64,000 bases of DNA from Amphiscolops sp. MND2022 (Eukaryota). Each line of letters starts with the position of its first letter. The stretch's first letter is position 1. Below, piece by piece: positions 2,889-62,011 of the stretch. Location of the stretch: the NCBI GenBank assembly GCA_964187785.1, contig OZ076415.1, positions 18,538,001 through 18,602,000 on the forward strand, written 5' to 3'. Under the pieces are notes generated by a model. It saw only the letters and a program-made list of their open reading frames with translations, ran no database searches and was not told the DNA's origin. The translations under genes and the position numbers were made by a program.

Positions 2889-5800
2889 CTAGTATCTGTA
2901 TTCATCAGTGAAGTTGGGGGTAGGATTGGGACGTAGGTTATATCTCCCTCCCCTAGGACTTTCATTTTCTACAACACAATCATCAGTTTCTTCAATTAAT
3001 ACATCGGGCACGGTTGTATCGTTCCCCCTGGAAGTTGAAATTTCTGAATTTTCATCTCTAGGAAAGTCCTGATTGGTCAATTCATCGTTTTCAGATTCGG
3101 TACTTTGTTGCCGTCTAGCGGACTGACGGTCCTCATTGTGTGCGTTTCTTGGGTACTGCTCCGTATTATCAGCCTCAGTATTTGTTTGCCGTCGCGCGGA
3201 CCGAAGGTCCGCTTCGTTTATTTCGTTTGAGCGTGAGTCACTATCAGTATCATCAGCGTGAGCGGCGTCAGTATTTGTTTGCCGTCGCGTGGACCGTAGG
3301 TCCAAATCTGTGATTATAGCATCTTGTTCATCGGAATTGGTAGGGAGTTCATTAGTAACAGTCCGATTTTCAGAATTAGGAGGGAAATCGTCAAAATTGG
3401 TTTCCCATGAAATGATGTACAGATCATCTTGTGGAATAATAATTTCATCGTCTGCTTGTAAATTTCCTTCGGGACGAATGTCTTGTGGGGTAGTATTTGG
3501 AGTGTATTTTCTAAGGCGTATTCGGTGTAATATCTGCGTTTTGTTAGTACTAAGTTTGCGAACAATATAGTTGTCGTTAGGTAAAACTTTTTCAATGACG
3601 TACGGTCCGATCCAACGAAATTCACGAAAAGGAATTTTAGAGCCTTGATGGTCAGCTAGAGGTTGTAAAATGAAGCAAAAATCTCCTTGTTGTAGAGGAG
3701 CTGCTTTAGCCTTTCGGTCATAATATTCCTTGTACTTTAAATATGATTGCATGATGTTTTTCTTTGTTTGATCAATTAGTATTTGCGTACGTCTTCGAAA
3801 TTCTTCAGCAAAATCAGTCGTTGGAGTGATCTTTGGGTTAGGGTTTAATCCTAACCGATGGTCTAAGATATTATAGGGTACTCTTCCGTGAAAAATTCGG
3901 GTGGGTTCGCATCCAAGACTTGAATGATAGGTCGTGTTATAATTAAGGACGGCCAATGGGAGATATTTGTGCCATTGACGCCTGTATTCACCTGATGCCA
4001 TTTTAAGGTTGCCCTTAAGGCTGGCATGAGTGCGTTCTAGTTTGCCTATCGTCTGAGGATGCTTTGTGGTCGCGCACCGAAGGTGAATTCCTAAAATTTT
4101 GGTAATTTCTTCTAGTAGTTTGGACGTAAAGGCAGTGCCTTTGTCGGTGATCAGCGTAGTCGGCAAGTAGGAATGTTTTGTCATGATATCAATAATGACC
4201 TTTGCCGTATTGACGGCCGAAGCGTCCGTTACTGGGTAGGCAAAAAGATATCTCGAAAACACGTCCAGAGCCGTTATGACATTTTCGTAACCTCCACTTG
4301 GGGGTAAGTTGGGCAGAATGTCAATTTGTAAGGCATCTTCTGGGCCAAGATCCCATTCAGGTAAAGTGAGTAATTCAGGTGTTATGGATGCATTGTTGAT
4401 TCTTTTGTCTTTTATACAAATTTCACACCCTTGGACCCACTTTTTGACAATTTTTGCAATTCCAGGAAAGTAGTATTTTCGTCGAATTTCGTGCAGCATT
4501 TTTGAGATTCCCGGGTGTTTGTTCGCGGAACCATGTAGTGATTGAAGTAATTCTGTGACTAGATGTTTCGGTAATAATGCTTGGCGGAATTGGACACTGC
4601 CTGTTTCATCGTAGTAGTCTCTGAAAATGATGTCATCATGTACGGACAGACGGTCAATTTGACGGCAGTAATGTCGGTAGCGCGAATCTTGCTGTAAGAT
4701 GGTTTCAGAGTATTCTTCTTTTTGCAGTTTGAGTCGTAATTGATGCAAGATAAGGTCGTTCTGTTGTTCTATAGCCATGGTGGTTGGTTTTGTCAGTTTT
4801 TGTATATTTTGAGGTTGGAATTGTGTATTATCATGAGTGCTAAGATGATCTAACAAAATATCAGGAGGTTGATTCATAGGATTTGACCTGGCATCTTGTT
4901 TGCGCTTCCAGATTTGTTCTTCGGTTTCCTCGTCATCGTCTGTATAGAAGATCTGTTCCTCTTCAGTGACTCCCGCCGATTGGACGTTGAGTTCAATGGG
5001 TGTGGTGGGGATGTCCTCCCGTATTCGGAGTATGAGTTTCTCTTTGGGACAGATTTCAAGACGAGACAAATAATCTGCAGCGGTATTGTTTTTGCCTGGT
5101 ATATGAGCGATCGTGAAACTAAACTGCATAACGTAGTCACACGCGTTCCACAATGTAGGTGGAATGATTTTTGTTTGAAAAAAGCGAGTGACTGACTTGT
5201 TGTCTGTTAGTATTATCACCGGTTTCGGGGTCCCCCAGAAGATATGGCCAAACTCTTTGAATGCAAAGAATATTGCTAGGAATTCTTTCGCATAAATGGA
5301 CATCTTCAGTTGGGCTGGACTAAAGGTCTTGGATCCATATGCTACAGGTGCGAAGGCTTTTCGCATCGAAGTATACTTTTCCATCGGATCGTCCTCGATG
5401 AGAACTGCATAACCTGCTGCCGAAAAACTAGCGTCTGCCATCAGGGCTATCTGTTTATCGGGTAGAGGTTGTTTGAGTGCCAGTTCACAACATCGGTCAA
5501 GAGCTTTGTTGATCTCGGTGAATTTCTCTAACAGATCGGGTGTCACCATGACTTTGGCATCACTTTTCAATAATTTGAAGAACGGTGTGAGTTTTTCTGA
5601 GAGCCTTGGGATGTAGTTACGGTAGTAGTTCAAGAATCCCAAGTATCTTTGAAGTGCTTTCTTGGATTTAGGGAATTTGGTCTTTTCCAAGAAATTCTGG
5701 ACCCTGGGTCGTTGTGGCCGCACCCCTTCAGGAGTGATGGTGCGTCCCAGGAAGTCGATTTCCTTGGCTCCGAAATGGCACTTGTGCATCGTTAGTTTGA

Positions 5801-8063
5801 GACCAGCGGTCCTGATGCACTGGAACGTTGCTCGAAGGTTGTTGATGAGCTGAGTAGCATCGTTTGCAGCTATCCCAATATCATCTACGTACTGAGCGCA
5901 TTGATCAGCTTTTATCACTTTATCCAGGTATTCGCGCATAAAGCTCGAGAATGCGGACAGCGCTCTGCTGAGACCTTGGGCAAGTCGACGATAGGCAAAG
6001 GTTCTGCTGGCAAAATTGAATGCCAGCATCTCGATTGACCTCTGGTCAGCCATCTGAAGGCAGTGGTATGCTTGAGAACAATCAAGTTTGCAAAATAATC
6101 GTTTGCCTGCCATGTACTGCGCAGCATCCGTTAGTGTGCTGACAGGATGGTTGTTGTTGATATAATCGTCGGAAATCAGGTTGTTGATCTTTCGGAGGTC
6201 GACCAGGAGTCGAAGTTTGCCGTTAGGTTTTTTCTGGGCAAAAATGGGACTTGCATATTTGGAAAATGGGAGAGTTGTTATAATCCCATATCGATGTAGT
6301 AGGACTAGTTCTACAAGGATATCTTTGAGGTTGATAGGAGTAGGTAAGCTTTGACTATAGGCAGGAGAGTCGTCTTTAGGGGTCAAAGTGACCTTGGAGT
6401 CCTCGTTCATACCTATATCAAAGCGTAGTCGTGCAAATATATCGTGAAATTCAACAAGTAATTCTTCAATTTGGGCAATTTCGGCTGGGTTTAGCGTCGA
6501 GTCTGTCCAGTCGAAGTTAGCAAGAAATTGTTTCCGCGATTCAGGGTCATCCTGAGGGTTGAGTTTCTCTAAATCTTGGAGATTTCGTAGTTCCCTAAGG
6601 ATTCTTTGTTGTATTGGTGTGTGAGTTTGGGGATCTCCTGGTTCTTCTGGAGTAGGGAACCAATAGTTCTCACTATCATCGCTAGTTTTCGGAGATTTGA
6701 TCAGGCTACTGGCATAATAGGCAGCATGTTCCGGGTTATCCTTCAAAAGGTGCCAAGTGGTCACAGGATCAATGGGTTTGACGTATTTCATCTGCTCTGG
6801 TGTGAGGACAGAGAAATTGGCAATGTGCGCACCTCTTTTGAGGGTGTACGGTTGGTCAGTGAAGTTGTTGACATGGATTGATACCTGACCTTGGGTCAGT
6901 GTGGCTAGAGCGGCGCAGAAGGTTATATCACCATCTTCTGCAAGGTCGTTGCTCGGTTGAAGAATTCCAGTGACGTTTGTGTCGTCATATAGTTGTGAGA
7001 ACATGGAAACCATATGTCTGTCGTTGGGGGGAATAGTTATGTCCTCCCGTGCACAGATAGGTTCCATGACGTTAGTGTACTTGTGGTCAGCTGTTTTCAA
7101 TTGCATGGAGAAGAAAGGGAAGTTTAAAACTCCTTGACGCATGTCCAGTATGGTATTGTTCCGTTGCAGGAACGAGAGACCAATTAACGGACTTGTGAGT
7201 TTTTCCATAACAATGAAGATCTCATGGAAATCGATGTCCCCGACCTCAAATTTGAGTTCAACGGTGCTCTTTGGAGTCTCCAGCTGTCCATTGGCTACCA
7301 TAATCTGGAAGTTGGGTGCCGGGCCCTCTTTAATTATTGACTGAGGGGCTAACAATCGGATTTTACGTAGATCAGCTTCTGGGATAGCGCTAGATAGGGC
7401 TCCCGTGTCTACAAGGCCATCTAATGTTAGTTCGCCAAAATCCATGGGGAAGTAGAGCATTCGTCGTTTGTATTTGAGTCCCAAATTGGTCGTCAACGGG
7501 ACGTAGTCAGGTTCACCATTTCGTGAGATCAGCGTGTTCACAAAGCGCTCTTCCACTGTTGCCGTCAATGTGACCAAAGGTCCATTGTGTGGAAGTTGTT
7601 CGGTTATTGCCTCCTGGATTGGTGAATTGGTGTTAATCCACACATTTTGCCAGGGGTCAACAGAGGCCGTGGATAGTTTTGTGTTCAGCATCTGATCAAT
7701 GTGGGGTTGATCATGTTCGATATCTACAATGTTTTTGGTAAAGTTTTTGTAGAAGTGTAGCTGATGTTGGTTGTAGATTTGAATGTCCCAATAGGGGTCG
7801 AATCCGAAGTCCGGGTCAGGATAATATGGGTTGTAGTTATCGATTAGGGGAAGGGGGCGAATGGTCGTAGTATTAGAGTGCTGTCTGTCGGACTGAAGGT
7901 CCGGGTTGTGTAAGTGAGTAGGCAAATGCTTCACCTGCTGCTGCCAGTCAGCTGATGAATTTTCTTTAATGGAAGAGTAATATTCAGTATAGTATATAGT
8001 AGGAGGATCAGATATTATATATTGTCTGATGCGTAATTTTTCATTAATATGGAGTCGTGGCAA
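2889..8063 (-). CDS. pol: Gypsy Pol polyprotein (protease, RT, RNase H, integrase), open reading frame
   Basis: 1724-aa ORF: LVDTGA (protease), LDCSQAY and YVDD (RT), DASF...EFLA...TDNK...ADYLSR (RNase H), H-H-C-C plus IDIL/TDKG/LER (integrase), WIGPY (GPY/F). Confidence 0.97.
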   Translation of the reverse strand: MPRLHINEKLRIRQYIISDPPTIYYTEYYSSIKENSSADWQQQVKHLPTHLHNPDLQSDRQHSNTTTIRPLPLIDNYNPYYPDPDFGFDPYWDIQIYNQHQLHFYKNFTKNIVDIEHDQPHIDQMLNTKLSTASVDPWQNVWINTNSPIQEAITEQLPHNGPLVTLTATVEERFVNTLISRNGEPDYVPLTTNLGLKYKRRMLYFPMDFGELTLDGLVDTGALSSAIPEADLRKIRLLAPQSIIKEGPAPNFQIMVANGQLETPKSTVELKFEVGDIDFHEIFIVMEKLTSPLIGLSFLQRNNTILDMRQGVLNFPFFSMQLKTADHKYTNVMEPICAREDITIPPNDRHMVSMFSQLYDDTNVTGILQPSNDLAEDGDITFCAALATLTQGQVSIHVNNFTDQPYTLKRGAHIANFSVLTPEQMKYVKPIDPVTTWHLLKDNPEHAAYYASSLIKSPKTSDDSENYWFPTPEEPGDPQTHTPIQQRILRELRNLQDLEKLNPQDDPESRKQFLANFDWTDSTLNPAEIAQIEELLVEFHDIFARLRFDIGMNEDSKVTLTPKDDSPAYSQSLPTPINLKDILVELVLLHRYGIITTLPFSKYASPIFAQKKPNGKLRLLVDLRKINNLISDDYINNNHPVSTLTDAAQYMAGKRLFCKLDCSQAYHCLQMADQRSIEMLAFNFASRTFAYRRLAQGLSRALSAFSSFMREYLDKVIKADQCAQYVDDIGIAANDATQLINNLRATFQCIRTAGLKLTMHKCHFGAKEIDFLGRTITPEGVRPQRPRVQNFLEKTKFPKSKKALQRYLGFLNYYRNYIPRLSEKLTPFFKLLKSDAKVMVTPDLLEKFTEINKALDRCCELALKQPLPDKQIALMADASFSAAGYAVLIEDDPMEKYTSMRKAFAPVAYGSKTFSPAQLKMSIYAKEFLAIFFAFKEFGHIFWGTPKPVIILTDNKSVTRFFQTKIIPPTLWNACDYVMQFSFTIAHIPGKNNTAADYLSRLEICPKEKLILRIREDIPTTPIELNVQSAGVTEEEQIFYTDDDEETEEQIWKRKQDARSNPMNQPPDILLDHLSTHDNTQFQPQNIQKLTKPTTMAIEQQNDLILHQLRLKLQKEEYSETILQQDSRYRHYCRQIDRLSVHDDIIFRDYYDETGSVQFRQALLPKHLVTELLQSLHGSANKHPGISKMLHEIRRKYYFPGIAKIVKKWVQGCEICIKDKRINNASITPELLTLPEWDLGPEDALQIDILPNLPPSGGYENVITALDVFSRYLFAYPVTDASAVNTAKVIIDIMTKHSYLPTTLITDKGTAFTSKLLEEITKILGIHLRCATTKHPQTIGKLERTHASLKGNLKMASGEYRRQWHKYLPLAVLNYNTTYHSSLGCEPTRIFHGRVPYNILDHRLGLNPNPKITPTTDFAEEFRRRTQILIDQTKKNIMQSYLKYKEYYDRKAKAAPLQQGDFCFILQPLADHQGSKIPFREFRWIGPYVIEKVLPNDNYIVRKLSTNKTQILHRIRLRKYTPNTTPQDIRPEGNLQADDEIIIPQDDLYIISWETNFDDFPPNSENRTVTNELPTNSDEQDAIITDLDLRSTRRQTNTDAAHADDTDSDSRSNEINEADLRSARRQTNTEADNTEQYPRNAHNEDRQSARRQQSTESENDELTNQDFPRDENSEISTSRGNDTTVPDVLIEETDDCVVENESPRGGRYNLRPNPTPNFTDEYRY

Positions 8064-8065
8064 AT

Positions 8066-9862
8066 CTAGTTTTTTGAGTTTTTAAGGATAGAAGTTGTGG
8101 GTTTATTGGTAGGGTCATCACGACTACTGGTCGTGTCGTCATCCTTTGGACTATCCAATTTGAGGTTTTTGGGGTTGAGGTGGGCTCCAGCGCCTTTCCA
8201 ACATCTCTCCGCCGGGTGATTGGTTTTGTCACAAGTCGGGCACTTTGGGTACTCTTTTTTGGTACTCGAGCCTTCATTGCGTTTTTGCTCTTCCTTTCGT
8301 TTTAGTTTTCGGCAATCGTCTTTGACATGTCCAGGTTTTTTGCAGTAGTTGCAAGTTATTCCTGGGTCAATGCCTGATGAAAGGAGTCCTTGACCCGGTC
8401 GTGTGGCTGTCGGGGCTGTTGACATTGTGGGAACGGGAATGTCGTCGCCTTCCTCAAGTCCATTCAACTCCAGTTCTCGTTCGAGATGAGTGACAATTTC
8501 TTCATAGGTGGCATTCTCTAATCGTGCCATGTTGACTGAACGTTTGAGTTTCGGTGGGAGTTTTGCGTATAGCAGACTGTCAATCATGGCTTGTGCGTGC
8601 TCGCCAAAGGCTTTTTCGGCGCCCTGATTGGATTCCTCGAGAAAATCGGGCAATTTCATTGTGTTTGGGTCAAATACCAATTTGTGCCATTTATGTTTGG
8701 CAGTTGCCTGGGATTCAGGTTTGACATATTTCCTACGAAACACAGCTAGTACGTCTTCTAAGGTTTGTCTATTTGCTGAACTGATGTTGCGGAAGGTTTG
8801 CAGGGCATTTTTGCGCAACAGTGAATGAAAGTGATTAATTTTCATTGCTTCCGTCATATCGGGTTGCATCTTTATCACCGTGTGAAAAAGGTCTTCAAAC
8901 AGTTCGAATTTTTCAGATTTGCCGTCAAATGTAAGTGTGGCAGTATTGACTGGTCGTACCATCAGTGTTTGTGCTGATGATTTGTTGTTCATTCCCATAA
9001 TGACATCGGCAAGTCTGTTTATGGGGTCTAATGGTGTTTGGGGCTGCATTTCCCGGTCATTGATAGGGTTTGAGGGAATCTGTGCCGGGAGAGTGGTATC
9101 TAATGTGTCATCGTTGACGCATTGTTGATGGGGAATTTTGTTTCTGGACTGCGTGGGACGTCCGGTCAGAAATTCAGGGACTACATGTGGAGTAAGGTTG
9201 GCTCCTGTCACCATGTCATAACCTTCATCATTTTCACTCTGTTCAGAATCTCCCAAACATTCCATTTGATGATTTGAAAGGTTATTTGCTGTCTTGTTTA
9301 GTCTAGGAAAATTCTCTCTTGAGTCCTGGACCTGTTGGCCAAATTTAATTTTATGCCGTCCATATGACCCAAGGTCCAAAGTCTGGTCCAAAGGGACGTT
9401 CCTACTCGGATGCCGTCCATCTGACCGAAGGTCCAATTTCGCGTTTTTACACTCCCTTTGATTTACTATGACATTTTCGATGCTCGGTAGTATTTTTTCA
9501 TCAATAGCAGAGTTTATTACCGCCATAATATGGGAATTTAGGTCAGATTTCATTTCTTCCAATTTCCTTGACATCTGTGAAGAAATTTCTGAACTAATTG
9601 CTCTGCTAGTTTCTACTGTAATTTCACTATTCTCACTCAAATTTGTATTCAAAAGAGATCTATAGTTACTTTCTTCATGACTGAAACCTGGTTGCCGTCT
9701 ACTTGACTCAGGGTCAATTTCTATTTGATCTACCGTGTTTTGGTCCCTAATTTCGCTGTTTAAGTAATTTCCGAGCATCACATCTAGATTTTCAATATCA
9801 GACATTATGTCAGATTGTCTTGAACGTTTCTCTTTCGCCTTTTGTCTTCTAGTTGAAGGCAT
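8066..9862 (-). CDS. gag: Gypsy Gag (N-terminal ~216 codons lie inside the 5' LTR)
   Basis: 598-aa ORF with CNYCKKPGHVKDDC and CPTCDKTNHPAERC knuckles; ATG at 9862 is inside LTR 9214-10716. Confidence 0.93.
   Translation of the reverse strand: MPSTRRQKAKEKRSRQSDIMSDIENLDVMLGNYLNSEIRDQNTVDQIEIDPESSRRQPGFSHEESNYRSLLNTNLSENSEITVETSRAISSEISSQMSRKLEEMKSDLNSHIMAVINSAIDEKILPSIENVIVNQRECKNAKLDLRSDGRHPSRNVPLDQTLDLGSYGRHKIKFGQQVQDSRENFPRLNKTANNLSNHQMECLGDSEQSENDEGYDMVTGANLTPHVVPEFLTGRPTQSRNKIPHQQCVNDDTLDTTLPAQIPSNPINDREMQPQTPLDPINRLADVIMGMNNKSSAQTLMVRPVNTATLTFDGKSEKFELFEDLFHTVIKMQPDMTEAMKINHFHSLLRKNALQTFRNISSANRQTLEDVLAVFRRKYVKPESQATAKHKWHKLVFDPNTMKLPDFLEESNQGAEKAFGEHAQAMIDSLLYAKLPPKLKRSVNMARLENATYEEIVTHLERELELNGLEEGDDIPVPTMSTAPTATRPGQGLLSSGIDPGITCNYCKKPGHVKDDCRKLKRKEEQKRNEGSSTKKEYPKCPTCDKTNHPAERCWKGAGAHLNPKNLKLDSPKDDDTTSSRDDPTNKPTTSILKNSKN
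8069..8075 (-). promoter_or_regulatory. -1 ribosomal frameshift slippery site A AAA AAC (gag-pol)
   Basis: X XXY YYZ heptamer in the gag frame just before the gag stop; pol is in the -1 frame; identical site in Gypsy-B at 50070-50076. Confidence 0.8.
9201..9213 (-). promoter_or_regulatory. Primer binding site TGGTGACAGGAGC (Gypsy-A)
   Basis: Starts with TGG directly after the LTR-terminal CA; identical 13 nt in Gypsy-B; lies within gag and encodes (M)VTG. Confidence 0.85.
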
Positions 9863-10716
9863 ATTAAAAGAAGGTTTTGTTCAATAGTAGATTGTCGAAT
9901 CGAAAGTGTATAACAGAACGGTTTGTATTGAGGTTATCACATTGAATGAATGAATCCGAATTAACTCCTTATATATATACTCCTCCCTGCATGACATCCA
10001 ATATTTGGGGTGTCATTGGGTAAAAATAGTAATGACATCATTATTAAAAATAACTATTACATCACAATTCTAAATATAGCAACTGAGGTGACATATGACC
10101 ACACGTCATAGGTTCTATAAATAGAAGCAACATACTGGTTAATAACAGGTACATGTTAGCGGTGACTTTCATGCAACTACAGATTTAATACTACATGCGT
10201 TAACTAATTGGACCTAACGTCCGCATGACGGCATTGAACTATAACTAAATGTAGCGCCGTGATTGGTTAGAAGCGAAGTGACTACGCGTCAGCTAGACGG
10301 CAGCAGCGTACCAGTTGAACGCGTTTCCTTTCACTTGAATAGTCATCTTGCTTTCTATTGTTATTATCAACGTCAATCAAATTAACTGCTTGTACAGCGT
10401 TTTGCACCTTTTGGTACTAGTTCACATCATTATTATTAATGTAATGCAACAACTAATTTACATAAGATTGTATCAAAATATGATTATTCATGCCGTCAAA
10501 ATGACCTTGAGTCACATTAATAAGACTTCATATTTACATGTAGAGATGAATAAGAATAAATAAATGAACTAAAGTGCATGAGAAGATTGTTAACTAAATA
10601 ATTAACGTATTGCGGAGTTTTCTCTCAAATAGGCAAAACGCCCGGTCCGGGATTAGTGTTATCGTCTTCGGGTCCAACTCGGTATAATATTCCGTCACAG
10701 GCGGCCGCCTGCGACA
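9214..10716 (-). repeat. 5' LTR of Gypsy-A (~1.5 kb)
   Basis: Begins TGTCGCAGGCGGCCGCC like the Gypsy-B LTRs and ends GACA next to the PBS. Confidence 0.85.
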
Positions 10717-10916
10717 CAAGTATTATAACAAAGTATTGCTATCTCGAAATCTGAAGCTAAAAAACTTGATCATGTTATGTTCATGTATTTCATTGAGTTC
10801 TTTAAAAAGTTGCGGGATTTACTAGATGATTCATAGTTCCCACATATTGTTTCTTCAACTTTCATTGGTGTTTCATCTAAATTCAAATACAAACTCTAGT
10901 TGCCTAAAGTTTTATA
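10717..10916 (+). repeat. Truncated 5' LTR of BEL-A
   Basis: Near-identical to 19460-19659; lacks the first 50 nt of the 3' LTR (19410-19459); abuts the Gypsy-A LTR end. Confidence 0.88.
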
Positions 10917-11656
10917 TGGTGGCCATAGAGAGGCACTTTGGCTCATGTTAACTGAGATGTTCGAATAGCTGTTGGCACCCGTATATGTCAACTCAGTGTT
11001 AGTCAACTCGTGGGCGTGGGGAACTCTGGAAGAAGAATCAAGTGGAAACTGGGCAATTAGATGACTGGCACCAGGACAGCATATAACCTACATTGACTCA
11101 TCCCAAGGGCCAGTTCCCACCCTTATCGTCACCCGCGCCTTCCCTTCTTCAAATCCTCAAAACCCGGAAGCACGGAAGACGCCCCTCAAACCCGAGACTA
11201 CTACAAAAAACTGGTTATGTTCAAAAACAAAAAAACAAAAAAGAAGTTTTCATTTGCTGTTTTTGAAAACTTGAAAAAACTTGGTGCTTATTTAATTTCA
11301 TTGCTTCGAGATAGCAAATCCAGATTTGTAACATAAAACAGAAGATAAATTTTAAGGATTCGAAAAAAAAATTTCATATGTGCTATAAAATTAGATTTTT
11401 CGAGCTAGCAAGACTTTTGAAAAAATCAATTCCAGTTATTGAATTTTTGCAAACATAAAAAAAACTTTCCGAGTGATTTATTATTGAAACAGAAAAAAAA
11501 CCACAAGATTTGGGAAAATCTTGAGTAGCTCAATTCGAGCAAACTGTGGTAAAAAAAAGGTGCGCCTTCGATACTTCAATGTTCTGAGAAATTCTTGACT
11601 TTCTTCCAAAAAAAAAAACAAAAAAAAACAAACAAAAAAAAACAAAAATAACACAC

Positions 11657-12271
11657 ATGGTATTCATCTTAGCTGCTAGCTCTTTACACCATGCTTTTGA
11701 AACTTCAACCCCCGAAGAAAAAGAACGTTATAAAGATAAAATCTATTCGATCCCCGGCCTGAGCTTGAACCCATATACAAAAATTCCTCGAAAAATCGTT
11801 CAAAACTTGCTTGCAAAGGATCTCAAAGAGAAAACAGATATAGTTATATGGCATGACGTTTTGAATAATAGTATTTCACGTCATGATAGTAACAATTTTC
11901 AAGCCTTGACTGTGCCGCAATTGATTGATGTGCTAAAAGGACTTCAAGACAAACTCAGTGCTCTGGTTTATTGCCAACGTTTTCGAACGCCGTATATTTT
12001 TGATGCTTTGAATGTTCTGAAAACCGACCATTACATTGAAGTGTTCAGTATCGTGAAAGATTTCATTTCGTCGAAAAAACAAAAGGATCCGGAACTTTTG
12101 AAACAATACAAGGCTTTACACCAGAGTCCTGAGCTTGAATTGAAAAGTCTTGACTTCATTTTACGTAAAGAGAGTCAACTTTCGGCCATCACCGACAAAA
12201 GCCGTCCAAAGAGGCCAAGCAAGCGTGCCCGAAACGCTATCAAAAAAGCATCTTTGCATCCCTCGCATTAA
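11657..12271 (+). CDS. BEL-A upstream accessory ORF, SGNH/GDSL hydrolase-like (inferred)
   Basis: 204-aa open ORF between PBS and gag; homolog in BEL-B (62012-62629). Motifs ILAASSLHH, IPGLSL, IVIWHDVLNN and ALHQ resemble SGNH blocks I, II, III and V. Confidence 0.6.
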   Translation: MVFILAASSLHHAFETSTPEEKERYKDKIYSIPGLSLNPYTKIPRKIVQNLLAKDLKEKTDIVIWHDVLNNSISRHDSNNFQALTVPQLIDVLKGLQDKLSALVYCQRFRTPYIFDALNVLKTDHYIEVFSIVKDFISSKKQKDPELLKQYKALHQSPELELKSLDFILRKESQLSAITDKSRPKRPSKRARNAIKKASLHPSH

Positions 12272-12300
12272 AACCCCGTTTTCGATTGACTGTGGAGACT

Positions 12301-12844
12301 GTGTCCAGACTTCACTGTCTGGTTGAAGTTTCCACTGGTTGTTGCTTGTTTCAGAGTTGTGTCCAGACTTAGTTGTCTGGTTGATACTCTGTAAACTTAT
12401 TCATCCCTTCCTCTCAAAATTATAACGGGGTGCAATTTTTTGATTGGACGAAATTGCAGTAACAATATGATTCAATTTCCTCAAGTACTAGGAATACGTT
12501 TCTATTAAAATTCCAGGCCCACAATTATTTTTTCCGATAGTTACCATTAGCAAAAAATTGCTTTTAGTGTATTAGCTTTTTTTGTTTAATTGATGATTTT
12601 ATAATTCAGTTTTCGTCTGTCAATGTTAGAATAGTGTCCTGACTTGATTGTCCGGTTGAAATCCTGACAGTACACCCCCTTAACAGCATCTCAGAAAACG
12701 AACCTTTAAGTTTTTCGTCGTCGTCCTCGTAGTCCGTGACTACATTCTAATCCGAAACAAATAAAATCGTTTGTTTGTCGGACCCGTCCCGTTCTTTGAC
12801 ACTTAATCTCTTTGTGCTGTGTCCAAACTTCACTGTTTGGTTGA
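12301..12844 (+). repeat. Four copies of a GTGTCCAGAC-N6-GTCTGGTTGA hairpin motif in the BEL-A leader
   Basis: Copies at 12301-12326, 12359-12384, 12634-12659 and 12819-12844; also in BEL-B at 61899-61924 and 61957-61982. Confidence 0.8.
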
Positions 12845-12929: not shown

Positions 12930-15900
12930 ATGGCGAATCCGGTACAGGAAAAAGTTCAAAAGTGCTTTGAGAGTCGTCTTAAAGCCGAAACCGAGCTGAA
13001 GAAGGTCCAAACTGATATTGTAGACGCTGTTGAACATTCAGAGCGCCATGCTCGCATAGTGCGACTAGTTGAGTCTTGCGAAGCAGCATTGACAAAGGCC
13101 TTCGCTAAAAATGAAAAACTTTTAGAGCTGACTAAGAAGTCCAATGATCCGACTTTGACAACTCTAGACCTGGAGAAATGGTTAAGTGATGTTACTGCGG
13201 AAAATGATGCAATCCTGAAGAAAGCAAGAGACTACATTGATCAATGCCCAGATCAGGACAAAATTTCCCAGAGCTCACGTCAGACAACTACGGTCAAGAG
13301 TAAGTCCAGCAAAGGTACCAGCTCCAAAATATCAAAGACTTCTAGTCAGCGGCAACGCGATCTCATAATCGCGCAACAACGACGTGAAGAGATTGAGAGA
13401 CAGAATGAAGCCACCGTACGCTTGGCGAAGCAGAAACAACAACTCGAACTTGAACAGCAAGAACTAGAAATGCAGAAATTGCGAAAAGAACAGGCTTTGA
13501 GGGTTGAAGAACTAGAAGAAGAAAATCGCCGGAAATTAGCCGAAGCCACCTTAGCCGAAATGGAACTTCGAGATGACTTGTCGGATTCTAATGCTGAATT
13601 TCATGAAAGTTTGTCGCGCTTGGGCGATTCAAGCGAAGGAAAGGAGACAGCGAGGATCAATGACTGGGTCAACAACTCCCCAAGCGGACCCGAAACTGAG
13701 ATGCAGCCCAGCGTTGGAGCTCAAGCCACAACAGCCCCAATTGACACCCTCGGAGTCCAACCAAGACCTCAAAGTCCCCCCAACGACGTTATCGCCCCAG
13801 CTTCGGTAACAGTTCAACCAAGAATACCGGAAGAGAATCCCACGACGACGACTCAAAGAGCAACTATCCACCACCAAGTTTTGCTGCCGCCACCACCACC
13901 TGTACTCTTTAACCCATCACTCACAGTGCCAGTGAGCCATGTGGTATTCCGAACACGTCTGCCTGGAAAATTCCAACTGCAATCAACAACTCTTCCGCAC
14001 AATCAAGCCCGCATTTACCGTCAAACCAAGTGATTCAAGTGACAACAACGAATGCAATATCGAGTGGTGTTCCGGCTCAGCCAGTACCAGCCTTGTAGAG
14101 GAACGGTTTATTACGTACCGCCTCCAGTTGCAACACCAGCTGTTGCCGGTACTACGACTCAACCATCATCTTGGATTCCGAATGCGAGCGCCGCCCCATT
14201 CGTCCCACCTTTTCTTACCGCAGCACCACCTACGAGCTCTGCCAGTTTAACACTACCTGAAGTCGCACAACTTCTAGCGTCAAGTAGAAAAGATCATCTA
14301 CCCGAGTGGAAACTGTCACAGTACAGCGGAGATCCGCTTCAATGGCACGAGTGGTTCGGACAGTTCAAGAGCGCCATTGACTCTGCTCCTCTGTCAGATG
14401 ACGTCAAGCTGACCTACCTCAAAACGTTGGTTGCCGGAAAGGCCAAAGTGGCCATAGCCGAGTTTGCCTACTGCGGAGCTATGTACAAAGATGCACTCAA
14501 AACACTTGAGCGCAAATTTGGCCAACCCCAGGCAGTAGTGACTGCATACTTGGATAAGCTCGCGAATGTCCCACCAGTGAAAATGCACAACAGCGAGAGC
14601 ATCATAAGCTACTCTGCAACTGTCAGTTCGTTAGTTGGTGTATTCCGATCACTCAACTACAACCAGGACCTGTCAAGTGCATCACTACTCGGTCAAGCAG
14701 TTCATAAGCTCCCGCCTAACATGAAGGAGGCTTGGTCGATGCACACCGTGAAGCGTAGTTTAGATCGACCAACACTAATTGACTTCAATGAGTGGTTGAA
14801 AGATAAAGCTGAGGCTCACGAAAGAATGAAAATTGCATCTGGCAAACCAAAGTCGGACGAAAATCCCCAACCAAGTGTCAACAAAACCAAGACAACATCG
14901 AAAGTCTTTGCGGCAACGACCTCAACGAACCAACAAAGCAACAGTTCAAAACCGAAGTCCGACAAACTGCCAAACAATTGTGCAGCGTGTAAAGAGAAAC
15001 ATCCGTTGTGGAAATGTCCGGTGTTTCGCAAGAAAACTCCCACTGAAAGAGCAAAACTAGTTGCCGACAATAAACTTTGCTTCTCATGTTTCAACGCCAA
15101 CCATTCCTTCCGACAATGCCCGCAACCGCGCAAATGTAGTAAAGAGGGCTGTGAAAGCACTCACAACACGTTTCTACACGGAGCCGACCGGATCTTCCCG
15201 AGTAAGAACCAAGTAACGAAGCAACGAAGTCCTGAAACCTCCACCTGCATCGGAACAACAAAAATAAAGGACCAGGTCAAAGAAAGTTCGGGTTTAGCTT
15301 CCGTGACGAATGTTAAAGGTCTTCTTCAAATTACAGAAGTTGAGTTGCATTCTGCTGGGGAGTCGAAGAAAGTTTTAGCTCTTTGCGACTCAGCCTGTAG
15401 CCATACTTGGATTTCCGCAAGTTTGGCTAGCAAACTGAAAGTCCAAGGAACACCGATAAAACTGACCGTTCATGGGATCAACTCCCAGCAAATAGTTGAT
15501 ACACAAATGGTAGAACTCAAGTTGACACCGGTTCATTCGGGTGGCTCTTGTTCTCCCTTTACAATCAAACCTTACGTGAGAGACAACCTCAGTGTAGGCA
15601 CCGATACTATTGACGTGGACCGCATGAAAATCAAGTACCCTCACTTAGAATCAGTACCTTTACACAAGTACAGCTACGCCGACGTTGACATGATCCTGGG
15701 TCAGGACGTGTTTCACTTTATCCGCCCGCTGGAGTATTTTGATTCCGACTGCAAAAATGCTCCAGTTGCCGTCCGTCTTCCGTTGGGCTGGGTATTAAGT
15801 GGACCTATTCCAGCGACTTCAGGAATAATCTCAACGTGCTTCAAAGCTGTTACGAGTAACAAAGACGCTGATTCCGAGCTCGTCGACCAACTCCGCAGCT

Positions 15901-18900
15901 GGTATGATATGGAATCATACGGAGCGATGAAACAAGTGGACTCCCGTTCCGCAGCCGACGCGAGAGCGGAGAAGATCCTTGAGGAAACGACTTACCACGA
16001 TGGAACTCGGTATCAAGTGGGTATGCTATGGGCTGACGATGAAAGTAGTTTACCGAACAACTACTTTTCGGCTCTCGTTCAGCTGAAATCTTTAGAACGC
16101 CGTCTAGGGAAAGACGTTGACTTGAGAGAACGATACTCAAAAACATCCAAGGCGACTTTTCGAAAGGTTATATAGTGCGCGTTGACAAGACTGACTGCTT
16201 CAAAGTTAGTAACTCCCGTGAATGGTATCTCCCACACCACCCGGTCATCCATCCGAACAAACCAGGTAAAGTTCGACGAGTGTTGAATGGCGCGGCCAAA
16301 TTTCAAGGCTCCTCATTGAACAATGCACTTTTAACGGGACCAGATCTTCTACAAAGCCTCATTCATATCCTGATTCGATTTCGACAATACCCGTACGCTG
16401 TGTCTGCAGACATTGAAGGAATGCTTCTCCAAGTTGGGGTAATTCCAGACGACAGGCCGTCACTTCGTTTTTTGTGGCGCGAGGACCCAGCTGCAGAAGT
16501 TGCTGTGTTCCAGTAAGTTCGTCATATCTTTGGATCTAAAGACTCTCCCACCTGTGCGAACTATGCCTTGAGACGAACAGCGACTGACAATGCATCCCAG
16601 TTCCCCGAAGCTGCCCAAAGTGTCATCAACAATTTCTACATGGATGACTACTTAGAACCCAGCCCAACCATTGAAGAAGCTACCCGAAAAGCTAAAGATC
16701 TGGCGAAATTGCTTTCACTACGTGGTTTCAAACTGACAAAGTTCGTCTCAAACGTGCCTACTATCCCGCCACAAGTAGAAACCAACTCCACATCACCAAC
16801 TGAAACGAAAGAAACAAAAGAAATCCCGAGCACCGAAGAATCGTCACATGTCTTGGAATTAAAGTGGAACCACAGTAGCGACACTCTTGTAGTCAGTCGT
16901 GGTACGAACCCTGAAGTCAAGCCGAAAGTAACTCAAAGAATCGTTTTGAGTTTAGTCTCTTCAGTGTACGATCCGATCGGACTTGTCGCGCCGTATACCG
17001 TCAAAGCGCGACTACTGCTAAAAGACATCTGGAGGTTAAGTGGACAACAATGGGATGACGACTTACCGCCGGAGGTTGTATCCATGTTCCTTGACTGGAG
17101 TGAAGAACTACTAGCTCTTAGCGACAGGGTCATTCCACGAGCGTATTTCCAGGGAAAAGTCAAAAATTTGGAACTTCACCTATTTGGCAATAGTTCACAA
17201 GATGTGTTCAGCGCTGTCGCTTTCCTACGTGCCAAGGTTGTCAAGAAAGAAAACCAAGAGCAAACACAACTCGCCTTCGTGTTTGGGAAAGCCAGAGTGG
17301 CACCCATGAAAGCCCTGACAATCCCAAAACTTGAACTACAGGCCTCGTTACTAGCAGCAAGGTTTCGGAAAGAAGTTGAGAAAGCATTGACACTGGAGAT
17401 TAGCAAGACTTTCATGTGGTCCGACAGCACAACTGTCTTGCAGTGGATACATTCTCTGGACAAACAGCCAGTTTTCGTTGCGAACCGCGTGGCGGAGATT
17501 TTGGATCTTACCACGGCCGACGAGTGGAATTACGTTAAATCCAGTGAAAACCCCGCCGATGCAGGCACGCGAGGCCTGTCAGCAAAAACGTTGTTAGACA
17601 GCAGTTGGCTCAAAGGACCGGAGTTTCTGAAAACATCCGACTGGCCATTCAAGCCACCAGAACCTGCAAAATTTAAACTGAAACCTGACATTAACGACAA
17701 GAGTACAGAAAAGCTTTCCCCCAAAGATGAGACTTCTCTCAGTTCCAATGCGGACATCAACACATCAACTTTCGAGTGGCAAATGTATAGCTCTTTCGAG
17801 AAACTTTTGCGTATTGTGGCCTACCTGATGCGTCTCATACCAAAAAATGAGGCCTACCGCTCCGAGACAGGTACCATCACGGACCCAAGTGAACTTGAGA
17901 ATGCACAAACGAAGCTTTTCTATCTGGTGCAATTAGAATCATTCCCCATAGAAAAGAAGCTACTGCTGAAGAATTCCCCTTTCAGTGGTACCTCTAAACT
18001 ACTACAGTTCTCCCCTTCAATTGGACCCAAAGGTTTACTTCGAGCAACTGGCAGAACAAAACAACTTGACGTATCTAGTTTTGACGCGAAGCATCCCGTC
18101 TTACTGGACGGTCGCCATCCAGTTACACGTTTATTCCTGGAACAATTACACCAATCCCATTGTCATCAAGGTGTGGACTACTTGAGGGCGTTGGTGCAGC
18201 AACAGTTCGCCATCGTCAAGCTTAGAACCACCTTGAGATCAATAGTTCAGAGATGTGTAACTTGTCGCAAACGTCGAGCTGAGACTATGGCTGACCTTCC
18301 ACGAGAAAGACTTGCCTTCAAGGAGCTACCGTTTACCAACACTGGCGTAGACTACTTTGGTCCATTCTACGTTTCCGTGAAAAGATCAACTGAGAAAAGA
18401 TGGGGATTCCTTTTCACTTGTTTGACTACACGAGCTGTACACTTCGAAGTTGTGCCTTCTATGGACACTAGCAGCTGTGTAATGGGAATCGAGAGGTTTA
18501 CGGCCCGCCGGGGTATCCCATCAGTTCTATGGTCAGACAACGGAACCAACTTTATTGCCAGTGAAAAAGAACTCCTACAGAACATTTCCAGTTGGAACCA
18601 ACATGTCTTATCTGAAACTCTCGTCAAGAAACGTATTCTCTGGAGGTTCAACCCACCTAGTGCCCTCACCATGGAGGAATCTGGGAACGACTGGTCAGAA
18701 GTTTCAAACACGTTTTCTACGCTGTTCTTGGGAACAGGAGCCTAACTGACGAGATCTTGACAACAACGTTTTGCCTTGTTGAGCAAAGTCTGAATGCACG
18801 ACCGTTAGTACCAGCTAGCCCCGATGCCACGGATTTGGACGCTCTGACTCCAAACCACTTTTTGCTAGGAACTGCGGGTTCCGTTCTACCATCGCATCAG

Positions 18901-19236
18901 CGTACTGAAATTGACCATCGAAAGCGCTATGTGCGTGCACAAGCCTACTCCGACGCCATATGGAATCGATGGTTGAAAGAATATGTGCCTCCGCTCAATA
19001 GACGTTCGAAATGGTCCAACCAGCCGGAGAGACAGCTTAAGACCGGAGACCTAGTTTGGATCGTCGAGCCAACGAGTCCAAGAGGACACTATCCACTAGC
19101 CCGAGTTGTGAAGTTGAACTTTGGAAGCGATGCCATTGCACGTTCCGCTGAAGTAAAGACCAGTACAGGTCGTCTTGTTCGTCCCGTTGTGAAGTTATGT
19201 CCCGTCCTACCTGTGCCTGATTCCGCATCATATTAG
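12930..19236 (+). pseudogene. BEL-A gag-pol polyprotein, disrupted
   Basis: Gag LPEWKLSQYSGDPLQW, three Cys/His knuckles, ALCDSACS protease, WYLPHHPV and YMDD RT, IPKLELQA and NPADAGTRG RNase H, GVDYFGP and SDNGTNF integrase. Frameshifts near 13930, 14090, 16160 and 18660; stop at 16514-16516. Confidence 0.93.
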
Positions 19237-19409
19237 TTTCGTTATCCACTCCCGAGAATTTGATAGCATTTGTTTAGTATGTATCACTGAAGCAATATAA
19301 CATTTACCATGTAATCTGAACATCTATGTAAACCGTTTTTGTGTATTTGAAAAGAAAAGATTTCTTTTTCGTTTGAAAAAAAAATCTTCATCTTCTCGGG
19401 CCCGGAGGA

Positions 19410-19661
19410 TGTTGTGTTCACAATATGGACAGATTAAAATTAACCAAAAATTCCTTTTTCAAGTATTATAACAAAGTATTGCTATCTCGAAATCTGAAGC
19501 TAAAAAACTTGATCATGTTATGTTCATGTATTTCATTGAGTTCTTTAAAAAATTGCGGGATTTACTAGATGATTCATAGTTCCCACATATTGTTTCTTCA
19601 ACTTTCATTGGTGTTTCATCTAAATTCAAATACAAACTCTAGTTGCCTAAAGTTTTATACA
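19410..19661 (+). repeat. 3' LTR of BEL-A
   Basis: TGTTG...ATACA directly after the PPT; matches the 5' LTR remnant. Confidence 0.85.
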
Positions 19662-21929: not shown

Positions 21930-22600
21930 TCAGCGTATATTAAATTGATTTCAGGGTTATTCTTTGGACTGTGTCAATTGTTCCAATAACGATTATTGTT
22001 TGGGTTTGGCCAATGTTCCAATAACAATTTTGCGAAACATTAGGACGATCTGTGAAACATTAGGAGCCAATTCTGAGGTAACATACATCAGACCAGAGAA
22101 CTTGTTCAACTTTTTGTTAGGAATGAAACAAGATCTTTGTTCCAGTTTGAAGTTCAAAGTTTTGTCCTAGGTTTTACATGAACTCGATTCAGTAGTTTTA
22201 TTAGAAAAAATAGATTTTGACAACGGTTTCGTATTGCCGAATGTCAAGACTTCACACTTTTCCTCATTTTGTGTTAAGTTGTTTCTGTTAGACCAAACTT
22301 TAATACGCTGGATGTAGCTGATAATACCTTGCGATGGTTTTCCTTCTAAATGTTAACCGGAGTTGTCATCTGCAAAAAGTGTTATTTCAGAATGTTCCGT
22401 TTGTTTGGGTTGATCAATAAAAAGTAAGGGTCCGAAAATCGACCCCTGTGGTACCCCTGTTTTTATGTTTCTTTTTTCCGATGTTTGTCTCTGCTTAGCC
22501 ACATAATGCTCTTGGTTGTTCAGATAGTCTGCAAAAGGTTTTAAATCTGGAAAGAAAAGATGTGCCATTTACACTCTCGAATTGGAGCTTTGTCAAAAAT
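21930..22600 (-). pseudogene. Non-LTR (LINE, CR1/L2-like) reverse transcriptase fragment
   Basis: GVPQGSIFGPLLF and LFADD motifs, then KKLNKFSGL thumb-like sequence; broken frames. Confidence 0.8.
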
Positions 22601-39439: not shown

Positions 39440-40632
39440 ATATTTTGCTTTAAACAGTTTTTTTTTCGCAATTTTGAAAGAATCAGAAAATGAAAACTGA
39501 AAGTTTTAGTCTTCACAAGGTGACTGTTTTTGAAAACTTCAGAAGGAAGAATGGCAATTTCTTCTTTCTAAGGTGGCTTGAAGTTCTTTCAGGTCTCGTG
39601 GGTCTTTCCCGGGTTTTCGTCTTTCCCGGCGATTGTTTCACCGATAACGTCTCCTAAACTTCTTTTGATGATTCCAATAAGCCGCTTTGTTTACATCATC
39701 ACTTCAGTCGTTTGCCCGACGCGGCGAAGAGCCATAAATGACATCGCTGAGTGTTTATCTCCACTTGATATCCACTTGAGAATTTCAAGAGAGGGTGATG
39801 AAGTTTTAAGGCCAAGCGCGGCGCATCGCCGCGACAGACAATGGGAATCGCCCACTCAGTCCGCTTTTCAGAATGGCGGAATTAAAAATAATAACCCAAA
39901 TAAGGAAATAATAAAATAACTAAAAATAATGAAATAACCAAGATAATAAAATAATGAAAATGCATGTTTTGAAATATAACTAATGTGGATTTCTCTGGCA
40001 GATTCCATCCACAAAATAATTCTCATAATTGTAAAAATATTTGACATCAAATCCAGTTTGCCACGAACTCCAACTTTGCTACTGCAATTGCAATCATTCT
40101 CTATTTCAATTGTTATTTTATCAATTCAAAATTTAACCATCGTTTACTTGGTCTTTAGTAAGTCTTTTAGTCGTCATCATTTTAAATCAGTTCATCAGCG
40201 AACAATTTATTTTCCTTCCGTCACTATTTACGCTTCTGTCCCGACGCCACTATCGTCACTTTCTTTCTTTCTTGGAATCTTTCCCAATTCATCTTCCACG
40301 TTTTCACTCCTGCGATTCATCTGGCCTCATCGGTCCTTCATTGCTGTTCCGAGCATACTGGTGCAACACGTACTCTTGCATTTGTGAGCAACTGCCTCCA
40401 GTCCTTATACGTCCATCATCCGCAGGTAAGCTATTTGGTCTTTTCAATTTTTGAACGGAAATAAGCTTGATCAGGTCTCTTCCTCTCGTTCATTGACTTC
40501 CTGTCCATTTTCACTAAACAAGTTTAGCATTTGGAATATTTTCTTTTCACTTCCGGAAGGTTTTAATTGCGGTTGTTCTTGGACTCATATTCAGGAAGTT
40601 GTCCGCAAAACTTTATATCCTTCTGTTTAGAT

Positions 40633-43600: not shown

Positions 43601-44671
43601 CGTCACAGGGCGATTCTTTCTAAGTGTACTCCTGATGATGCCGAATGGACTAAGCTCCTACAATTGTGCCCCGATGACTTGAAACAGTTATCCAGCCGTA
43701 ATTTTCTGAGCCGGTTGAAATTGGAGACCGACTTGGACCAAGCTTGTCGAGCCAAAATAAAACGACATCAAGATGATAAGAAGCCGGGCCAACCAAGTCT
43801 TGATGCCCTCGTTGCCAAAGAGAGGGAGAATTTTGGAATTGAGGCCCGAGGTTACATTGTGTCCTTACTGGAGGCTCTGTTGCGCAACGTGCATTTCACC
43901 GCCAACATTGTGCACGGGATGGGTTGTTTCGACCCTCACGTACTGCTCTCTTTGCCGCTCAGCCAGGTTACTTTCTGTTTCGATTCCTTGTACGATAGTT
44001 TCCGAGTTCGAGGCTGGGTAGACGAAGCTTCTAAGAGCGAGTGCCGAGATGAATATTTCGAGTTTGTGGACTACCTACGCAGTGCTTACTCGTCTATAAA
44101 GAACTCCCCTGGCACTATTCCAGATATGCTGGACTTCCTCGTGCCCATGCCCGCTTTTCAGAGTCGTTCGAGGCTCTTTCATTTTTTCAGGCTCTGTTGT
44201 CTCTGCATCACTGAGGGCCATCATGACCTTCCAGCTGTCAAATTCCAGGATGTAGATACATCTAGTTCGAATTGTCGTCTTTCCGCTGTGATTCTACCTG
44301 CACAGTCTTATCTGGCCAACTGCCCTGATGCGATAGCCGTTTGCACTACTGAGTCCGCTTTGGCTGCATACAAAGAATTGTCTGACCAGTTTAATTCATG
44401 CCAGTTTGCCGGAGATCCTTGATCTCATGTGGATGTTTTTGGTCGAGCCAATTTCCTAAAAACTTTAACTACGGCTTACAAAAATCTGAAAGGAGTTCCA
44501 ACTGCTGTGGTTGCCACTACGTCTCGTTCGTCCTCTGTTTCCAGCTCTGCTGTGCGCAAGATTAATTGGGCTGCTGGTAAGGCCCAGGAATTGGCTTTTT
44601 TCGGCGACATCCCACCTAGCGAGATTTTCAAGACGGTGAAGGAGCTGCGTCAAGGCTCATCTAAAGACTAA
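40633..44671 (+). pseudogene. Spliced antisense accessory gene of Gypsy-B (~1190 aa when repaired)
   Basis: Exons 40633-42337, 42417-42911, 43038-43172, 43294-43375, 43512-44671. Introns 42338-42416, 42912-43037, 43173-43293, 43376-43511. Lesions: frameshift near 41505, TGA 41747-41749, TGA 44420-44422 (TGG/Trp in copy A). Confidence 0.8.
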
Positions 44672-50064: not shown

Positions 50065-50066
50065 AA

Positions 50067-54806: not shown

Positions 54807-55540
54807 GTTTTTATATTCGGAGAAAGCAATTCTATTTTTTGCGTACACAATTGAAAATTGAAATACAGCGAAACTTGTAAACACCATGACTGAGAAATAC
54901 CTTTTTCTGTTTCAAATGAAGCAAGTAATTTTTTCCTCATTCTGCTCGCAAGCCACACGAAAGAAGCAAACATATATCTGACATTTTTTTTATTTTCAGG
55001 AGAAATTCACGACTGTTTTTTTCGAAAATCCAAAGTGAAACCCGGGCGAGCATAAACAACAGATGAGAACAAAGACTTCGAGGCGGAGCTGAAGTTGAGA
55101 GTTAACACAATCCTTCTTGAACAAAAATGGCAAATGGACAGGACAATTTTGTTAGCAGATTTACAGCTACGAGCACAGCTACTGTCGTTAGGCCAAGCAG
55201 TCATTGAAAGGAATATAGTATGCCTATATGTCGTTTACCAAATGGTTGCAGAATATGTCAACGTTATTGAAACTGAGAGAAAAACAACAATGAACGATGA
55301 ACCAAAAATTATTCCCGCGAACAATTTTACAACTCAGAAAAATTCGTGAATGATTCATGACTCAAGCTTTCGAGATAGCAAAGAAATGATTTTTGCCAAA
55401 ATAATACTTTTAATTCAATCTTGCGACGCAACATCCTCCGGGCCCAAGAAGATGTCAATACAAAACATTAGAACTGAAAAAAAAGAACTTTTTTCGGAGA
55501 ACGGTTTACATGGATTTTCGATATAAATGTTACGCTGTGC

Positions 55541-61646: not shown

Positions 61647-62011
61647 TGGGTTTATCGAGTTTAAGAATCCGGGCTAGTGCACAGTTCCAATCAGAAGAAC
61701 AATATGTGACAAAAACGGGAAGGGTGATGCATTTTGTGATTTCCGAAAGAATTGAGAGGGCCCGGAGTATCGATAAAAAAACTAGTCGTAGAGAAAGAGG
61801 ATGTTTAAAGTAATGGTGCTGACCCAATTTCAGCCGGTCAATGCACTCCGGACTTTATTGAGACAGTCGTATGTATGCGAAAAAAAGCTTCCAGAGTATC
61901 AACGAGACAACTAAGTCTGGACACAACTCTGAAAGAAACAACGCGCTCTAAAGGTTTCAACCAGACAGTGAAGTCTGGACACTGCCTCCACAGCAAACAA
62001 TACTCTGGGTT

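Follow-up and report, generated by a model that had tools for sequence, protein, structure and literature searches.

The BEL/Pao elements and the ORF upstream of gag

The window, by which we mean the whole stretch of 64,000 nucleotides analyzed here, contains two diverged BEL/Pao LTR retrotransposons, A and B, whose gag-pol regions are 67-68% identical (Table 1). TG...CA LTRs, a primer binding site (PBS), a polypurine tract and BEL-type domains in one gag-pol define the element type, and the Pfam E-values in the frames downstream of the ORF considered here (DUF1759, 2e-16; Peptidase_A17, 1e-38; DUF5641, 2e-23) correspond to the BEL/Pao set. This ORF lies 723 nt behind the PBS and 658 nt ahead of the gag ATG (12930) of element A. 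Twelve short upstream ATGs precede it (10717-11656), and its predicted product is basic (pI 9.6), with a Lys/Arg tail at about residues 178-204. The first-pass annotation of this DNA had reported an open frame of about 204 codons between PBS and gag, a homolog in the second BEL element and the motifs ILAASSLHH, IPGLSL, DIVIWHDVLNN, YKALHQ and KRPSKRAR. The frame runs from ATG 11657 to TAA 12271, its translation contains all five motifs, and the homolog of element B sits at the equivalent place (72.6% DNA identity), with frameshifts near codons 63 and 175-180.

It had also been pointed out that the ORF is open although gag-pol is broken. Both observations are true, since stop codons interrupt gag-pol of A near 14031-14040 and in 16175-16517, and the frame shifts near 16140 and again near 18690. 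However, with at least four lesions in 6.3 kb, a 612-nt ORF would by our estimate stay intact by chance about two times in three; the intact frame was therefore rejected as evidence of selection, and the case for selection rests on the codon pattern and the family of homologs. Contigs from two small-share DNA sequencing runs, seemingly one data set, cover the ORF and gag-pol, and since no listed piece bridges ORF and gag they were left out of the evidence. No RNA run carrying the ORF was found among the sequencing runs listed.

Several other features of the window were recorded. The 5' LTR of A appears to be interrupted at 10716, where a minus-strand Ty3/gypsy LTR seems to start, which suggests nesting; the gypsy end motif seen there recurs at 38699, and the 50 bp that the BEL LTR lacks are expected to the left of the window. 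Only 1 of 200 bases differs between the two LTRs of A, although its gag-pol is broken, a combination that may reflect either assembly errors or a defective copy mobilized in trans. In both elements the 5' LTR ends in TA just before the PBS (10915-10916 and 63248-63249) and the 3' LTR in CA. Element B follows, in a tandem arrangement, the 3' end of a copy (63250-64000) that is 94% identical to it and has an LTR in common with it. The 64-kb window contains no tRNA gene with which the PBS could be compared. Two Ty3/gypsy-type elements (2889-9880 and 44847-51360, both on the minus strand) carry a dUTPase domain between protease and RT (PF00692, E 1e-5), a layout that the available part of PMC5408684 describes as rare among retrotransposons. 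Antisense ORFs lie 3' of pol in both (1832-2677 and 43457-44422 on the plus strand, also 620-1135 and 40567-41523); the three scanned had no Pfam match, and those at 1832 and 43457 have a Cys-rich motif in common and look homologous. A LINE reverse transcriptase fragment is located at 22239-22544 (minus strand, E 6e-13). Judging from the elements it carries, the DNA comes from an animal, perhaps an acoel flatworm.

Table 1. Features of the two BEL/Pao elements in the window and of related LINE loci in metagenomes (LINE coordinates refer to each locus)
Feature	Position	Strand	Remarks
5' LTR, element A	10717-10916	+	first 50 bp missing; 199/200 bases identical to 19460-19659
PBS, element A	10917-10933	+	TGG-initiated, abuts LTR; 16/17 bases common to element B
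Stand-alone ORF, predicted SGNH fold, element A	11657-12271	+	ATG to TAA, 204 aa; putative active-site residues S8, G34, H66, N70, H155
Leader repeat copies 1 and 2, element A	12299-12384	+	28-nt repeat (family D1); each a 6-bp hairpin within a longer stem
Leader repeat copy 3, degenerate	12632-12659	+	79% identity; z = -0.4, folds no better than shuffles
Leader repeat copy 4	12817-12844	+	two-sided change, stem kept; z = -2.1
gag-pol, element A	12930-19236	+	Pfam DUF1759, Peptidase_A17, Integrase_H2C2, DUF5641
Polypurine tract, element A	19398-19409	+	12-mer identical in element B
3' LTR, element A	19410-19661	+	TG...CA
3' LTR, element B	55205-55433	-	
Leader repeat, two copies, element B	61896-61982	-	58 nt apart, spacing as in A; weaker folding, z = -1.6 and -0.5
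SGNH homolog, element B	62012-62629	-	between PBS 63231-63247 and gag ATG 61646
5' LTR, element B	63248-63479	-	also serves tandem upstream copy
Three-ORF LINE, L007	346-4803	+	esterase-like ORF, PHD-type ORF1, APE-RT ORF2; also L001, L002, L004, L009
Three-ORF LINE, L010	256-5006	-	as L007
Direct repeats in LINE spacers	L010 4107-4293; L001 986-1072; L004 1478-1648		33-51 nt

Predicted fold of the ORF product

The product was modeled from 80 close sequences (pLDDT 78.6) and, with AlphaFold, from 79 diverse sequences (pLDDT 96.5, pTM 0.88). The best Foldseek match was a GDSL-like lipase (E 2.5e-4, TM 0.49), and VIA-align against 48,161 chains returned the OatA catalytic domain and ties (Z 11.4, rmsd 3.1, 143 residues aligned). 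These VIA-align matches cover residues 1-177 and leave the basic tail outside; of the 50 listed, about 40 have titles naming an esterase, lipase or acyltransferase, one is Oskar OSK (Z 8.4) and nine are uninformative. Two models and five fold searches, among them the Foldseek comparison proposed earlier, agree with the SGNH assignment first suggested from motifs, and a flavodoxin-like alpha/beta/alpha SGNH fold is predicted with near certainty. The Z score of 11.4 is lower than the 16.8 (TAP) and 19.6 (PAF-AH) given for the LINE esterase ZfL2-1 in its published description, as far as available.

The Pfam SGNH/GDSL profile matched neither the query nor appeared among the 25 families listed for the 80 and 79 members, and matches to TPR_ZFYVE26 and KaiA_N fell below cut-off and were rejected. 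A PDB sequence search gave no SGNH match, hhalign against one bacterial GDSL protein gave a probability of 2% and no register, and the ZfL2-1 structure (4c1b), whose crystal form is domain-swapped, was absent among the fold-search matches listed. ESM Atlas returned no match for the query ORF; for the distant relative P0211 it returned GDSL clusters at 0.88-0.89, a lead. Since the family is invisible to Pfam, it has likely been missed in annotation.

A putative Ser-His active site

Catalytic residues were assigned from motif spacing and secondary structure. Among 79 diverse family members, about 30-40% identical to the query, the conserved positions are A7 (72 members), S8 (73), G34 (73), H66 (74), D67 (72), N70 (64, with Ser in 13), N71 (71), H76 (68), H155 (75) and E161 (71). 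In the register that we infer, S8 is placed after strand 3-6 as the block I nucleophile, and S9 is replaced by Cys in nine members. The residue before the block I Ser is Ala (A7) instead of Asp, the block III GxND motif is altered in the family, and the block V Asp is missing, position 152 being variable and mostly K, R, Q or A. The earlier reading that Ser and His are kept while the Asp positions are atypical fits this distribution. In ZfL2-1 the active site comprises S143, G165, N195, D279 and H282, with H191 and S228 as transposon-specific residues (PMC3905857, available in part). By spacing, H66-N70 equals H191-N195 of that protein, and C106 (49 of the 79 members) is the likely candidate for a counterpart of S228 in strand 4. 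D67 or E161 might, speculatively, substitute for the missing acid. SGNH enzymes with a Ser-His dyad can be active, according to the available text of PMC9487903, so the missing block V Asp excludes only the canonical triad type. We think it rather likely that the protein is catalytically active.

The protein could also be a catalytically dead SGNH scaffold, like Oskar OSK, that attaches to the repeated leader hairpins and governs how the element RNA is translated or packaged. The lack of Asp in blocks I and V and the presence of OSK among the fold matches would suit such a role, but each of Ser8, Gly34, Asn70 and His155 is retained by 81-95% of the 79 members, and conservation of all four is not what a dead scaffold would lead one to expect.

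A different proposal is that the enzyme is an active de-acylase with a host target, be it a protein, a glycan or a lipid messenger, and serves for instance to blunt silencing, while its tail directs it to the nucleus instead of anchoring RNA. The Lys/Arg tail does resemble a nuclear localization signal, and the best fold matches are acetylesterases and O-acetyltransferases; these neighbors, however, are only 9-18% identical and not indicative of substrate. Deacetylation and depalmitoylation are among the options raised in the accessible part of PMC3905857, but the same part reports that ZfL2-1 did not deacetylate histone peptides. We regard this proposal as unlikely.

Selection and linkage to BEL elements

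Between A and B the SGNH ORF differs at 20%, 15% and 48% of codon positions 1, 2 and 3, and its dN/dS of 0.11 (194 codons), a check proposed in the first-pass annotation, points to purifying selection. For gag-protease the corresponding value is 0.09 and for pol, with dS close to saturation, 0.06. The proportion of synonymous differences (pS) is 0.67 in the ORF, 0.72 in gag and 0.75 in pol; this similarity indicates that the element already had the gene when A and B diverged.

A protein search with the ORF gave 326 matches. The best 120 listed are unnamed proteins, 63-99% identical, come from ENA in 119 cases and are mostly 202-205 aa long; 100 of them have at least 195 aa and both end motifs, and 20 are short or lack a motif. 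A profile search gave 781 clusters, the clustering being at 50% identity. Seven read-through homologs (P0044, P0051, P0071, P0119, P0202, P0203, P0319) have tails that match the A/B leader repeat. No fused longer form of the protein was found, a weak negative; viral contigs searched for the family gave no locus, and none was confirmed in the prokaryote genomes searched. Locus L012 was discarded as a chance pattern match (tblastn negative).

BEL relatives were collected with the gag core (41 long proteins, 39 of them from ENA) and include single polyproteins of 2130-2174 aa with DUF1759, Peptidase_A17 and DUF5641. Taking an identical exact contig size to mean one contig, we found a BEL and an SGNH protein together on contigs of 8474 bp (P0428, 1822 aa, and P0014), 8866 bp (P0388, 2158 aa, and P0055) and 10066 bp (P0387, 2174 aa, and P0017). 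Because these contigs are short (8.5-10 kb), the two genes cannot be far apart. Each cluster contributed its listed members, no more than 15 out of as many as 389. Of the 63 distinct contigs so obtained for five close BEL clusters, 14 equal one of 191 known SGNH contigs in length, against none of 70 in five distant clusters (Fisher p 1.2e-5); the SGNH list covered only proteins of at least about 63% identity, so that the zero in distant clusters does not show absence, and these control clusters, which have no shared contigs, may stem from another assembly. One close cluster, P0398, had 0 of 14 contigs matched among its listed members. A P0399-P0192 contig match (70% and 92% identity, 600 kb) and a P0163 match involve very long contigs and are probably due to chance.

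These data bear on whether the ORF is a neutral passenger, a LINE fragment inserted into the leader of these particular copies. The broken copy in element B and the 20 short or motif-less sequences among the best 120 would be compatible with it. Against it stand the dN/dS of 0.11, the equivalent position in two families whose gag-pol regions are 68% identical, the seven homologs that run on into the BEL leader repeat and the absence of LINE ORF1 or ORF2 sequence near the ORF within the window. Moreover, ordinary LINE insertions leave 3' ends and not a 5' ORF. The passenger explanation is largely refuted already and highly improbable. An independent insertion had been named as one result that would overturn the first-pass reading; instead, dN/dS, the shared contigs and the same place in A and B indicate that the gene travels with the BEL lineage. 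We are confident, almost to certainty, that the conserved ORF is a real selected BEL gene.

LINE-linked relatives and the direction of transfer

A search with a degenerate block III pattern yielded 11 metagenome loci, all of which encode a relative (28-44% identity over the matched segments). The LINE context was read at seven of them (L001, L002, L003, L004, L007, L009 and L010; the other four are L005, L006, L008 and L011), which represent six families because L002 and L003 belong to one. In these seven, a separate ORF of about 200 codons is followed after about 70-270 nt by ORF1, and an APE domain is also present in six. L007 and L010 have a full APE-RT ORF2 (RVT_1, Exo_endo_phos), in both with a Cys-rich motif at its end. 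ORF1 gave weak PHD/C1 matches, below Pfam cut-offs and with none in L001. By these predicted domains, the elements are CR1/L2-like LINEs in which the SGNH relative forms an ORF of its own, placed first and followed by a PHD-type ORF1. The first-pass annotation had missed this first ORF and the GDSL ORFs already described in rotifer LTR elements. Such three-ORF LINEs merit a description of their own: PHD and esterase ORF1s, which here occur in succession, are alternatives in published classifications, and the available part of PMC4120745 treats them as separate types and places esterase ORF1 only in vertebrate CR1/L2 groups.

Identity among LINE-linked members is 25-42%, and 30-38% to the query, whereas BEL-linked members are at least 63% identical to each other. 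Both kinds have the basic tail. A quick maximum-likelihood tree of 118 rows was built from proteins of 180-285 aa among the listed profile matches (150 of 781), 16 close homologs and eight loci, shorter fragments and L002, L006 and L008 being left out. The BEL-linked rows form one shallow group (SH-aLRT 91) and the LINE-linked rows three other deep groups, with deep supports of 74-91. Since a single branch splits the BEL-linked from the LINE-linked rows and the root is a midpoint root only, the tree cannot fix the direction of transfer.

The gene could thus have another history, being old in BEL or derived from a third source, with BEL or a common pool as the origin of the LINE copies. Besides the unrooted tree, the context is known at only seven distant loci as compared with 781 clusters, and P0211 (41% identity), which groups with L004 and L009, shares one contig of 34,119 bp with the gag of a distant BEL element (57-58% identity). 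This may represent an older or repeated BEL association; among the 15 listed members of the P0211 cluster no other BEL contig was matched. The available text of PMC5408684 also makes a case for ORFs of this kind being drawn from a shared pool. On the other side, BEL or gypsy proteins of the window found no match at any of the 11 distant loci, the LINE-linked members span three deep groups and the BEL-linked ones a single shallow group, and LINE esterases have long been known while the word esterase does not occur in the accessible text of the BEL/Pao survey PMC3118150. Another history is a minority view, with perhaps one chance in four. A LINE donor is the simpler reading of these sequence relationships, and we consider it probable.

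The spacer between the ORF and gag

A 28-nt repeat occurs between ORF and gag four times in A and twice in B. The region of its first two copies in A (12285-12400) folds far better than shuffles (z = -6.6), and the hairpins may be packaging or translation signals. Repeats are also present in three of six LINE spacers scanned behind the esterase-like ORF (L001, L004, L010), unrelated to the BEL repeat, and folding z is below -3.6 in three of the six. Repeated or strongly folding spacers 3' of the ORF in A, B and several LINEs are what an RNA-binding scaffold would call for, as is the basic tail in LINE-linked members; the other three LINE spacers, however, fold weakly (z -0.9 to -1.7). Together with the conserved active-site residues, this leaves the dead scaffold doubtful.

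Proposed origin and role

As a whole, the reading we favor, with about even confidence, is that the ORF is a LINE-derived 5' accessory gene of one BEL lineage, encoding a low-turnover, membrane-binding Ser-His esterase with an RNA-binding tail. Template switching or recombination would have brought the ORF, along with its structured spacer, into one BEL/Pao lineage from the 5' end of a CR1/L2-like LINE residing in the same genome. ZfL2-1 hydrolyzes esters slowly, and its binding to acidic phospholipids and liposomes does not depend on catalysis (PMC3905857, part available). By analogy, the basic surface of the BEL protein would bind acidic membranes, an acyl chain would enter its active site and slow hydrolysis by Ser8-His155, without the usual Asp, would bring about release. 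The Lys/Arg tail would tether the element RNA or particle, and the outcome would be a matrix-like hold on membranes during assembly or transport of the particle. This anchoring role is tentative, slightly short of an even chance.

A broader, improbable possibility is that dyad SGNH esterase, basic tail and hairpin spacer constitute a portable 5' cassette that moves between LINEs and BEL elements and, as a matrix-like anchor, loads env-less particles into vesicles, so that they could pass from cell to cell or enter the germline with no envelope protein. Among transposon esterases, a small stand-alone member such as this one should be easy to express and assay. The gene is common to LINE and LTR retrotransposons and traceable, with both contexts in hand.

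Comparison with known systems

Our literature search found neither a BEL/Pao esterase nor a stand-alone esterase ORF ahead of ORF1, and the word esterase is absent from the available text of PMC13524379, as it is from that of PMC3118150; Repbase, GyDB and most subscription papers lay outside the search, so a prior note may exist. Esterase ORF1ps are known in CR1/L2, RTEX and Penelope elements (ZfL2-1, PDB 4c1b; accessible part of PMC3905857). The BEL protein resembles ZfL2-1 in its predicted SGNH fold, the Ser, Gly, Asn and His residues, a His four residues before the oxyanion Asn, its basic character with an Arg/Lys-rich motif and its 5' position in a retroelement. The esterase of ZfL2-1, as described there, is the C-terminal domain of ORF1p behind a coiled coil and has an intact Asp-His-Ser triad, neither of which applies to the BEL protein. 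The latter is stand-alone, lacks the block V Asp, has its basic motif at the C-terminus and belongs to an LTR element, while related LINEs carry the gene ahead of a separate PHD-type ORF1. The ORF stands alone in the window and at L001, L002/L003, L007, L009 and L010, without the coiled-coil arrangement of ZfL2-1.

Vesta LTR retrotransposons of rotifers have Ty3/gypsy affinity. An SGNH domain is also reported in a Helitron, going by the title of a paper (PMC4021074). Vesta elements carry a GDSL ORF3 that, like the BEL ORF, is a separate SGNH ORF in an LTR element and is common to another retroelement class, in that case Athena/Terminons (PMC5408684, as far as available). ORF3 differs in lying 3' of pol, in its length of about 1.3 kb and in its intact invariant residues, whereas the BEL ORF is 5' of gag; the accessible text does not call Vesta BEL/Pao, and the two were compared by description, not sequence. 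The SGNH ORF of amphibian Ngaro elements (PMC9210276, in part) is likewise an extra ORF of unproven function in a retroelement, but it follows the recombinase ORF of tyrosine-recombinase elements in which LTRs and integrase are absent.

In position, there is a parallel with sORF1 and sORF2 of the MDG1 group, which are selected accessory ORFs 5' of gag in env-less LTR elements and have been tied to cell-to-cell transmission (bioRxiv 10.1101/2025.03.14.642691, available part). They encode 70-110 aa, among them a FAST-like transmembrane protein, belong to Metaviridae and are unrelated to SGNH in fold. An SGNH fold without the block V acid is found in CE2, SsEst and NanS (PMC9487903, in the text available) and in Oskar OSK; these are cellular proteins, of which CE2 and SsEst are active and OSK is inactive. 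With the present gene, BEL/Pao joins the element types that carry an SGNH protein, and its stand-alone place at the 5' end arranges a known kind of transposon cargo in a new way, with LINEs as the plausible class of donor.
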